From: Nannocystales bacterium | Lineage (GTDB): Bacteria; Myxococcota_A; Polyangia; Nannocystales; Nannocystaceae | Length of the DNA: 29,955 nt | Direction of reading: 5' to 3' | Assembly: GCA_050633305.1 (NCBI GenBank) | Contig: JBOEGF010000072.1 | Location: 1-29,955, forward strand | Part shown: in pieces, positions 1 to 3,070 of the stretch | Numbering within the stretch: the first letter of the stretch is position 1 | Layout of the letters: each line of letters opens with the position of its first letter | Program-made: the position numbers and the translations under genes | Notes under the pieces: generated by a model | Database searches by the model: none | What the model saw: only the letters and a program-made list of their open reading frames with translations | What the model was told of the DNA's origin: nothing

Positions 1-652
1 GTTTTTCGGGGGCAACTCCAGTCCTCCTTGGCCATCCAGTGCCAGCAGGAGGCGGTCGATCCCGATCGCCCATCCGACCCCGCCCGGGTACGGGCCTCCG
101 CCGGCAACCTGTTTCTGGGTTCCTAGAGCATCGCACTCAACCTCGAAACCAAGCCCCGTGTAGTAGGAGAGCCCTCGTTTGACGGCATCGCGGACTCGAT
201 ACCGCAAACCCACAGTGTCGAGTACGCCGACGAGTTCCTCGCGCACCTTCGGCAACGCGGTGGCGGGGTCCTCTCCGAGGACTTCGACGCCGAACTGAGT
301 GAACTCCCGGTACCGCCCCCTCTGCGGTCGTTCGTACCGGTAGCAACGGGCGACGTAGAACACCTTGTGCGGCCTTGCTCGGTTCTTGCTCCAAGACGCC
401 TTCCACCGGTCTTGGATGATCCCCGTGACTTCGGGGATCAGACAGATCGGCCGACCACGCTTGTCCTCAAACGCGTACATCTGTCCGAGGATGTCCTCGC
501 CCGCTCGCGAGACAAAGGTGTCCTGTCCCCAGATCGAGGGGATCACGACCTCCTCAAAGCCTCGGTTGATGAAGATACCTCCGTACCGAGTCGATCAGGT
601 CGGTGTAGCGTCGGGCCTCGGCCCCCTCAAGAATTCTCGTTCCACGTAGCAT
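1..652 (-). CDS. Compact histidyl-tRNA synthetase-like protein (class II aaRS catalytic core), split by a +1 frameshift near 574-569; 3' end runs off the window
   Basis: Manual translation. Frame A from ATG 652 (SD-like AGGGAG upstream) gives MLRGTRILEGAEARRYTDLIDSVRRYL, with a stop at 556-554. The +1 frame is open from about 594 to 1: INRGFEEVVIPSIW...QMYAFEDKRGRPICLIPEVT...YRYERPQRGRYREFTQFGVE (motif 2)...RGLSYYTG (HisA-like)...GGGPY (HisB-like)...GWAIGIDRL (motif 3). Could be programmed, a pseudogene or a sequencing error. Confidence 0.85.
569..582 (-). promoter_or_regulatory. Candidate prfB-like +1 ribosomal frameshift cassette with a His A-site codon
   Basis: Minus strand reads CGG AGG TAT CTT CAT C: internal SD GGAGG (582-578), 3-nt spacer TAT, CTT (574-572), then CAT (571-569). 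E. coli prfB reads AGG GGG TAT CTT TGA C. Confidence 0.6.
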
Positions 653-771
653 GTGTCGTTCTCTCCCTTGCGCTGCATCAATGCGCACCGGGGATGGACG
701 ACCGACTCTTGTTGATTGGGGGTCCCCGCGCGCACAACCTCGTGCCGCCTGGGACTCGCTTCCCAGACGAC

Positions 772-801
772 CTACGGGTGGAAATGCACCGGGGCCGTCA
801 C
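772..801 (-). CDS. Putative His-containing leader peptide MTAPVHFHP (or MRVTAPVHFHP from ATG 807)
   Basis: GTG ACG GCC CCG GTG CAT TTC CAC CCG TAG starts 7 nt downstream of a candidate -10 and is followed at once by a strong hairpin (771-744). It lies upstream of the HisRS-like gene. Confidence 0.45.
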   Translation of the reverse strand: MTAPVHFHP

Positions 802-808
802 TCTCATT

Positions 809-837
809 TAGATACGGTCGGAGCGGCACTCCGTCAA
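809..837 (-). promoter_or_regulatory. Candidate sigma70-type promoter for the leader and HisRS-like gene
   Basis: TTGACG (837-832)-N17-TATCTA (814-809); good -35, weak -10. Confidence 0.45.
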
Positions 838-973
838 GGGAACAGCGCGGACCAATCGTCCGAGGCCACATAGGACCCGATACACAATCCGCTGCTGCAC
901 CCGGAACGAGTCGAGTCCCCGCCTCTGGGTGGGGGTTGAGGAGCCGGAGTCAGGCCACTCGGCTTGAACCGCT

Positions 974-1552
974 CTACCCGAAGTAGTCGGGCTCGTTGCC
1001 CGGCTTCCATTTGATGTTGCAGCCCATGCTCGGTTTCTGCTCTTCGGCGACCGCGTTGCCTCCGAGCACCGCCTCGAGCGCCGCGTATACGTTCGCGCCC
1101 GTCACCGCAACTTCGTTCCCGGGGCGGCTGTCGTCGAACTGCCCCCGGTACACCAGCTTCTGGTCACCATCGAAGACGAAGAAGTCCGGGGTGCAGGCCG
1201 CTTGGAACGCCTTGGCGACGCTCTGGTCCGCGTCGACCAGATACGGGAACTCGTACCCGTAGACGTTGGCCTCACTGCGCATGCGGTCGGGCGAGTCGTC
1301 GGGGTACTGGTCGTAGTTGTTGCTGTTGATGCCGACCATCGCGACGCCCTTTTCGGCACAGTCGCGGCCAAGCTTGGCGAGTCCGCTGCGAAGGTGCTTC
1401 ACGAACGGGCAGTGGTTGCACATGAACACGACGACGAGGGCCTTGGCGTCCGCAAAGTCGGTCAGGGAGACGGGCCGGCTGTGCGCGTCCGGAAGGCTGA
1501 ACGCAGGAGCTTGGGTGCCCAACGAGAGCATGCGGGAGCGGGTCATCACCAT
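974..1552 (-). CDS. Thioredoxin-fold redoxin (AhpC/TSA, PRX-like1 family)
   Basis: GTQAPAFSLPD, FMCNHCPFV (CxxC), AACTPDFFVFD, YRGQFDDSRP, SMGCNIKW. Confidence 0.92.
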   Translation of the reverse strand: MVMTRSRMLSLGTQAPAFSLPDAHSRPVSLTDFADAKALVVVFMCNHCPFVKHLRSGLAKLGRDCAEKGVAMVGINSNNYDQYPDDSPDRMRSEANVYGYEFPYLVDADQSVAKAFQAACTPDFFVFDGDQKLVYRGQFDDSRPGNEVAVTGANVYAALEAVLGGNAVAEEQKPSMGCNIKWKPGNEPDYFG

Positions 1553-1585
1553 GGGCCGCGGAGTATAGACCCGGTGCCCGCGATC

Positions 1586-3070
<1,485 letters not shown>

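Follow-up and report, generated by a model that had tools for sequence, protein, structure and literature searches.

A candidate His-sensing translational leader stacked on a predicted RF2-like frameshift in a mini-HisRS gene

At the start of contig C72 of a Nannocystales bacterium (JBOEGF010000072.1; genome of 11 Mb, 66% GC), a HisRS-like gene that changes reading frame at a His codon is preceded by a mini-ORF that carries His codons of its own, which raises the question of whether one small synthetase gene is placed under two successive sensors of the same amino acid. The first-pass annotation of the window, by which we mean the whole stretch of 29,955 nucleotides analysed here, had suggested a second His-sensing layer, translational or Rho-dependent, stacked on the frameshift. 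Our analysis supports such a layer and lends direct sequence support, in the form of an anti-SD helix, to a translational output. The leader is probably a leaderless, ribosome-dependent, His-sensing translational attenuator and the first of two serial His-tRNA sensors; as to the parts of this reading, it is highly likely that the uORF senses His and, given such sensing, quite likely that the output is translational. The features involved are the following.

832..837, minus strand: candidate −35 hexamer TTGACG; TTGACR-N17-TA is also found in the relatives L007 and L170, and its function is inferred.
809..814, minus strand: candidate −10 hexamer TATCTA, separated from the −35 by a 17-nt spacer.
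772..801, minus strand: putative leader-peptide uORF of 9 codons, with a GTG start 7 nt after the −10; peptide V/M-T-A-P-V-H-F-H-P-stop, His codons CAT 786–784 and CAC 780–778, stop TAG 774–772.
784..794, minus strand: segment 1, part of the uORF as far as the first His codon, with 11–12 nt paired in the free state; 1:3 duplex of −19.4 kcal/mol.
742..771, minus strand: hairpin 2 (2a:2b, 771–744), directly 3' of the uORF stop; arm 2b is 754–742.
722..735, minus strand: segment 3, the anti-anti-SD switch strand, whose partner on the folded nascent RNA changes from segment 1 (free) to segment 4 (His-stalled) to 2b (stop).
681..703, minus strand: segment 4, the anti-RBS strand, comprising the second GGTCGTC, TCCC and the second CCCCGGTGC; predicted partners are segment 3 (ON) or the RBS (OFF).
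650..667, minus strand: RBS of the main gene, with SD GGGAG 667–663, ACGAC 659–655 and ATG 652–650.
554..652, minus strand: ORF1, zero frame, 32 codons, of which the first 27 specify the N-terminal part of the HisRS core; His is absent before the shift site.
569..582, minus strand: RF2-like +1 cassette, with internal SD GGAGG 582–578, a 3-nt spacer, P-site CTT 574–572 and A-site CAT 571–569.
1..570, minus strand: ORF2, +1 frame, the remainder of the HisRS catalytic core (Pfam tRNA-synt_His), extending past the end of the contig.

The promoter-like hexamers (TTGACG 837–832, TATCTA 814–809) and their spacer, the mini-ORF 801–772 with its two His codons near the stop and the hairpin 771–744 all lie where the first-pass annotation had placed them, as do the two CCCCGGTGC copies (794–786 and 693–685, corresponding to segments 1 and 4) and GCGCGCGGGG (733–724). 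The absence of a terminator noted there also holds, with no terminator-like site between positions 500 and 1100. The promoter fails a strict sigma-70 scan because its −10 lacks the final T. Initiation at an alternative in-frame ATG, at 807, would extend the uORF to 11 codons; we favour 801 since the uORFs of the two closest relatives have 9 codons and begin 6–7 nt after TTGACR-N17-TA.

The start of the main gene is fixed at the ATG 652–650 by homology of MLRGTR to in-frame homologues. ORF1 reads MLRGTRIL...RRYLHQPRL-stop, and homology to HisRS resumes in the +1 frame from position 570. When the +1 step is read at CTT C, the product aligns gap-free at the site to 8 in-frame homologues and, from T. 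thermophilus residue 6, to T. thermophilus HisRS. The catalytic-core motifs of HisRS (PExT, the motif 2 loop, RGLxYY and the motif 3 Arg) are kept, with GGGRY present as GGGPY in the window's protein. The insertion domain is absent, ~90 residues being missing between two stretches matched to HisRS, and so is the anticodon-binding domain in the complete homologues, which end soon after motif 3, 169–191 codons after the site. The gene product is predicted to be a ~220-aa HisRS core. A model of the post-shift part (pLDDT 82) has HisRS as its best match, and sequence and fold matches in the PDB are likewise to HisRS. Some copies bear the RefSeq label HisZ, an identity that we reject because the best sequence and fold matches are to HisRS and the source genome, which also encodes a full HisRS, has a separate HisZ-like gene. 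No his genes, hisG included, were found among the 50 neighbouring ORFs scanned (57 extracted), and no neighbour gene is conserved across loci.

Depletion of His is a conserved property of the family: the 120 listed family proteins contain 39 His among 21000 residues (0.19%), and 88 of them contain none, compared with 322 His among 26240 residues in 82 full-length HisRS. The window's mini-HisRS has a single His. At E<=0.001 the family numbers 1511 proteins, some of which may be fragments of full HisRS, and its occurrence is patchy, with the gene present in 2 of 72 genomes of the same taxonomic family, 4 of 400 of the class and 1 of 401 of the phylum, as well as in 1 of 89 and 2 of 138 genomes of two other families. 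In one relative (L007:1497-2067), the motif 2 and RGLxYY regions are altered and the branch is very long, while leader and frameshift are kept, so that this copy is possibly decaying; it adjoins the same peroxiredoxin-like gene upstream as the window's gene does. In the related loci L185 and L187, an HD-domain gene overlaps the mini-HisRS stop.

For comparison of the control elements, 80 loci were examined and split by context, L041 and L208–L211 being excluded as truncated or outside the family. The gene is +1 shifted at 66 of these, in frame at 11 and not assignable at 3. Over the 60 distinct sites with a shift, the P site holds CTT in 44, GTT in 15 and ATT in 1, and the next base is always C; in the zero frame, 59 have a His codon in the A site (CAT 44, CAC 15) and the remaining one has CGT. 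An SD-like run lies 3 nt upstream of the shift codon in 55/60, where it overlaps Arg codons, such that protein constraint may contribute to its conservation. ORF1 contains no His before the shift site at any of the 66 shifted loci. The frameshift reported below the leader is thus conserved as a cassette in 60 distinct loci, and this recurrence, together with the lack of a homopolymer and the HisRS homology of the N-terminal piece, leads us to reject sequencing error, transcriptional slippage and an internal start as causes of the frame change. The cassette is present in the cultured Sinorhizobium phage Phosso and in Paraburkholderia sprentiae, in both of which the gene is annotated from a +1-frame start. 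In a phage copy on a long branch (L144 near 2990), CTT CGT (Arg) replaces the His codon at the shift site.

The leader is distributed more narrowly. A His-tailed uORF, with at least two His in the last five codons, is found at 19/19 of the tRNA-free, GC-rich, terminator-less loci with upstream DNA; these are 18 distinct loci, the window included, and the uORF ends 90–131 nt before the gene start. Three loci found later (L215, L216 and L232) carry both uORF and cassette, the uORF stop of L215 lying 137 nt upstream, and cognate His codons are found at the 3' end of the uORF in 22/22 terminator-less leaders. By a rule set post hoc (4–14 codons, >=2 His in the last five, ending 85–135 nt before the start), such a uORF precedes 10 of 8408 long ORFs of the source genome. 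A lack of uORF or His codons in homologous leaders, named by the first-pass annotation as contrary evidence, was thus looked for and not seen: these leaders do carry a His uORF, and most have 3–5 His codons. The peptides of relatives include MASAVHQHA (L007), MASQVHHHR (L170) and MRCARLHHHHV (L171), and the His run of the window (H-F-H) is among the weakest of the family. Across the family leaders the His codons vary between CAT and CAC and from 2 to 5 in number, and frame, start and stop are kept. A promoter-like motif (TGnTA or TTGAC-17-TA) lies 6–11 nt before the uORF start in 16/18 leaders, against a background of 0.3%, and 0/18 have an SD before the uORF, with uORF starts and segment limits having been picked with the motifs in view. 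Transcription is predicted to start at about 801–802, which would make the uORF leaderless or nearly so. The leaders align as a single family, in which hairpin 2 and segment 3 share a conserved core of nucleotides, and form two groups in a quick protein tree, where L177 and L188 are labelled as leader-type despite their truncated upstream DNA. A hairpin followed by a T-run was found at the 3' end of 0/21 terminator-less leaders. L181 and L184 have a T-run immediately 3' of hairpin 2; it might act as a polymerase pause site or as a terminator working with the opposite logic.

At four proteobacterial loci, to which two plasmid records add, the gene is preceded by a longer His leader with a terminator, and a simple rule finds the terminator in 5/6 of these classical His leaders. 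Six proteobacterial copies with a classical His leader imply that His control has been fitted to this gene in two designs. The leaders of L036, L037, L038, L040 and L213 (Paraburkholderia, Pseudomonas) are classical terminator His attenuators stacked on the same frameshift, those tested falling below the Rfam gathering score. On a Pseudomonas silesiensis plasmid (L214:1215-1390), a gene of a divergent, phage-rich clade is in frame and has a His leader with a long-loop, terminator-like hairpin. The remaining contexts comprise 51 loci that have no His-tailed uORF, 11 of them with some ORF containing two scattered His, as well as three loci without upstream DNA and three without the N-terminal motif. 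Of the 51, 33 come from the viral collection and 18 are metagenomic, and tRNA genes lie nearby in 42. Phage copies mostly keep only the frameshift. The Telmatospirillum copy (L039), which lacks N-terminal motif and leader, is probably truncated.

Searches for the leader elsewhere returned little. Rfam gave only chance matches in positions 1–3000 of the window and 0 matches in 10 loci, with no His_leader or other family, and the hairpin pattern had 0 matches in the viral contigs. A sequence-only leader model applied to the 72 genomes of the taxonomic family matched strongly at the two known loci only; of its 14 weak matches, the 13 inspected, most of them inside ORFs, included no His leader before a gene. 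Searching the source genome with the leader by nhmmer found no further copies, and neither the canonical HisRS gene nor the HisZ-like gene of that genome has such a leader. A reading of the leader as a tRNA-like RNA was prompted by a phage locus where a tRNA-like element with a long anticodon-arm insertion, uncalled by ARAGORN, lies directly upstream of the gene (L005:2780-2900). This reading was rejected, as ARAGORN calls no tRNA near the window's gene and leader-bearing loci have no tRNA nearby.

Folding of the leader suggested four segments, the pairings of which are conserved in a locus-specific manner. When segments were swapped between the 18 leaders, cognate pairs were preferred over swapped pairs for 1:3 (p=1e-4), 3:4 (p=5e-5), 4:RBS (p=8e-4) and 2:3 (p=5e-5), values that are overstated since the leader loci are kin and not independent. 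The controls showed no cognate preference (1:4, p=0.87; 1:RBS, p=0.82; 3:RBS, p=0.52; 2:4, p=0.95). As 1:RBS is among these, the codon tract does not pair directly with the SD in a locus-specific way, and the link between them is a relay through segment 3. The duplexes of the window reach −23.1 kcal/mol for 3:4 and −14.4 kcal/mol for 4:RBS, its 1:3 being the strongest and its 3:4 the joint-strongest of the 18. For the two CCCCGGTGC copies, the first-pass annotation had proposed alternative pairing with 733–724, and this forms the core of the switch. A further proposal, that GACGGCC (799–793) pairs with either GGTCGTC copy (772–766 or 703–697), is correct as to positions, but these pairings, though possible, are minor; by folding and swap test, the main partner of the second GGTCGTC is ACGAC (659–655), just 5' of the start codon, and this copy therefore belongs to the RBS-blocking helix. 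Of the 2b:3 helix, RNAalifold recovers only 5 pairs, with 5 double changes at one of them. Applied to a MAFFT alignment it gives almost nothing (−0.2 kcal/mol), which is uninformative because the spacers differ and arm 2a is misaligned. For hairpin 2 we claim no per-pair covariation count, since the automatic anchor chose wrong partners in several loci.

From these pairings we infer the following order of events. Transcription would start near the start codon of the uORF, which would be translated as a leaderless message. With no ribosome present, segment 1 would hold segment 3, leaving segment 4 to block the SD and spacer (OFF). With ample His-tRNA, a ribosome reaching the stop would melt 2a and free 2b to take up segment 3, so that the RBS is once more blocked by segment 4 (OFF). 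Under His-tRNA shortage, a ribosome stalled on the His codons would cover segment 1 and leave hairpin 2 intact, whereupon segment 3 would capture the nascent segment 4 and the RBS would stay open (ON). Translation of the main gene would then end with the 32 codons of ORF1 except where a ribosome pauses at the hungry CAT and slips +1 (CUU to UUC), a step aided, as in RF2, by the internal SD 3 nt upstream. This would yield a nearly His-free HisRS core, with both gates reading the same signal.

Folding of the window's nascent RNA, before the SD emerges, follows this scheme, with segment 3 pairing with segment 1 in the free state (11 nt), with segment 4 when a ribosome is on either His codon (12–13 nt) and with 2b in the stop state (11 nt). 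Among the 18 leaders, 3:4 forms on nascent RNA in 17 when His-stalled, 12 when free and 8 at the stop; on the full RNA the corresponding numbers are 7, 3 and 3. Of the loci found later, L215 fits on nascent RNA only, and marginally, and L216 does not fit. In the window, the RBS is blocked in every state at full-length equilibrium, with 7.0, 7.0, 6.9 and 6.6 of 10 SD-region nucleotides paired, so that an ON state must be co-transcriptional and kinetic. This dominance of the OFF hairpin, by which the decision may be taken during transcription, would also suit a His-sensing uORF whose main output is premature transcription termination, Rho-dependent or at a U-less hairpin, with SD pairing secondary. 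The C-rich linker between segments 3 and 4 and the T-run of L181 and L184 could be read in the same way, and Rho-dependent control has been proposed for terminator-less Cys leaders (PMC1262725). However, segment 4 prefers its own RBS in the swap test, the OFF helix ends at the start codon and T-runs occur in 2/21 leaders only and not at the leader's end, and we regard termination as the main output as unlikely.

The cost of opening the RBS, computed with a ribosome footprint imposed on the leader, supports the switch on average and gives a mixed picture by locus. A ribosome at the first His codon lowers the cost by a mean of 2.1 kcal/mol across the 18 leaders, relative both to the free and to the stop state, compared with mean drops of at most 0.8 (versus free) and 1.4 (versus stop) in 22 shuffled sets. 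The difference exceeds 0.5 kcal/mol in 11/18 leaders for free versus His and in 14/18 for stop versus His. The effect is clear in L007, L170, L171, L181, L184, L195 and L179, and absent in L178, L194 and L200. In the window, the cost is 13.5 kcal/mol in the free state and 9.9 in both the His and stop states. A ribosome on most earlier uORF codons lowers the cost likewise, and His specificity would come from dwell time. These data bear on a simpler form of His sensing, in which the presence of a ribosome on the uORF is in itself enough to loosen the leader or protect the mRNA, and no three-state switch is needed, a view to which the low cost at most uORF codons and the several leaders without a clean switch lend some weight. 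We nevertheless consider it improbable, as four specific pairings covary with the locus while four controls do not, and the stop state returns to OFF in 14/18.

Two further alternatives are very improbable. In the first, the window's copy of an otherwise real family element has eroded and no longer switches, leaving control to the frameshift alone; the two His codons of the window, the equal opening cost at His and stop and the decayed appearance of the related L007 gene (long branch, altered motifs) are set against the rank of the window's 1:3 and 3:4 duplexes, a clean switch on nascent RNA and intact catalytic motifs. The second, equally improbable, takes the leader for an RNA that binds a ligand or protein (riboswitch-like, or a HisRS or tRNA-mimic site) and has an incidental uORF, as the conserved nucleotide core and the LEU element of actinobacterial leuA, an SD-sequestering leader in which Leu-codon mutations were reportedly without effect (PMC1262725), might suggest, but it is at odds with His codons that change in kind and number within a kept frame, start and stop, and with the lack of an Rfam match.

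The His-sensing translational attenuator that we favour is a variant on a known kind, its surprising part being the stacking on a His-codon frameshift. Among the closest known systems, Ms5788A of Mycobacterium smegmatis is a polycysteine, leaderless sORF attenuator with SD occlusion and no intrinsic terminator (10.1101/834739), and resembles the present leader in its leaderless uORF (predicted here), cognate codons at the 3' end, lack of an intrinsic terminator and SD occlusion. It differs in sensing Cys and in direct pairing of codon tract and SD, where we find His and a relay (1:3, 2b:3, 3:4, 4:RBS). The LEU element shares a leader peptide, alternative folds and SD sequestration without a terminator, but has a pseudoknot, a direct stem between Leu run and SD and no frameshift. 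His leaders also precede hisS*/hisZ, which are hisS paralogues, in Bacillus (PMC2965389), and these, like hisL and the Rfam His_leader, share the His-codon leader peptide, alternative hairpins and a HisRS-family target. Classical hisL differs in that here there is no U-tract terminator, no SD for the uORF, no Rfam match and a tract of 2–5 His codons. Because it has no terminator, the leader is not a classical transcription attenuator, the hisL-type design being that of the proteobacterial copies of the gene.

Auxiliary aminoacyl-tRNA synthetases induced by shortage of their own charged tRNA through ribosome-mediated attenuation include TrpRS1 of Streptomyces. This enzyme, which is linked to antibiotic resistance, differs from the mini-HisRS in that it is full-length and transcriptionally attenuated and is not known to involve a frameshift.

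The second gate is closely related to that of prfB, in which an internal SD precedes CTT_TGA_C at a distance of 3 nt (PMC3711429 and PMC5009743). Shared features are this spacing of the internal SD from a CUU in the P site, an early +1 shift, a short zero-frame product and a full protein that requires the shift. In prfB, however, the A site holds UGA and the signal is the release factor, whereas here the A site holds a His sense codon and the signal would be His-tRNA, with re-pairing from CUU to UUC, or from GUU. According to a 2016 review, hungry-codon shifting is not known to give a starvation-specific product in any example (PMC5009743). The literature searched, with few subscription journals among it, contained no description of this leader, frameshift or mini-HisRS gene.

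Overall, we lean towards viewing the locus as a mobile, His-depleted mini-synthetase behind an AND gate, formed by a relay-type leaderless translational attenuator and an RF2-like hungry-His +1 frameshift. The frameshift also occurs in jumbo phages, where it lies next to tRNA-His, and would represent a natural case of autoregulatory frameshifting that senses an amino acid and gives a starvation-specific enzyme. The mini-HisRS would most likely act as a back-up enzyme for charging tRNA-His, and such charging would close a negative feedback loop like that of RF2. If this is true, the locus offers a testable natural case of hungry-codon frameshifting used purposely, available in Phosso and in named Paraburkholderia strains, and extends the small class of translational attenuators without a terminator by one that senses histidine and works through a relay. 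The three interchangeable controls found on one gene (SD relay, terminator attenuator, frameshift alone) would amount to a natural experiment in the evolution of amino-acid sensing, and many database entries of the family have a wrong N-terminus or a HisZ label. The gene further suggests that phages and scattered bacteria have some need of an emergency enzyme that charges tRNA-His and lacks an anticodon-binding domain; inhibition of the host HisRS, an altered tRNA and phage demand are candidate reasons.

Phage copies of the gene often lie beside tRNA-His. In jumbo phages (L116, L118, L121, L124 and L005), they sit in tRNA clusters, mostly of tRNA-His, Ser, Tyr and Cys and often with two tRNA-His. 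An unusual phage tRNA-His has been described, in an account whose available part does not include a mini-HisRS gene (PMC5389517). The source genome has an ordinary tRNA-His on contig C1, a second tRNA-His call on the minus strand (G000:C13:26362-26434), in which the D arm is unusual and the G-1 unclear, and a third call, on C17, that looks spurious. Upstream of the leader in the window lies a gene of the AhpC/TSA family (974–1570, minus strand) whose ATG is preceded at ~10 nt by TATACT and lacks an obvious SD; it is possibly nearly leaderless as well.
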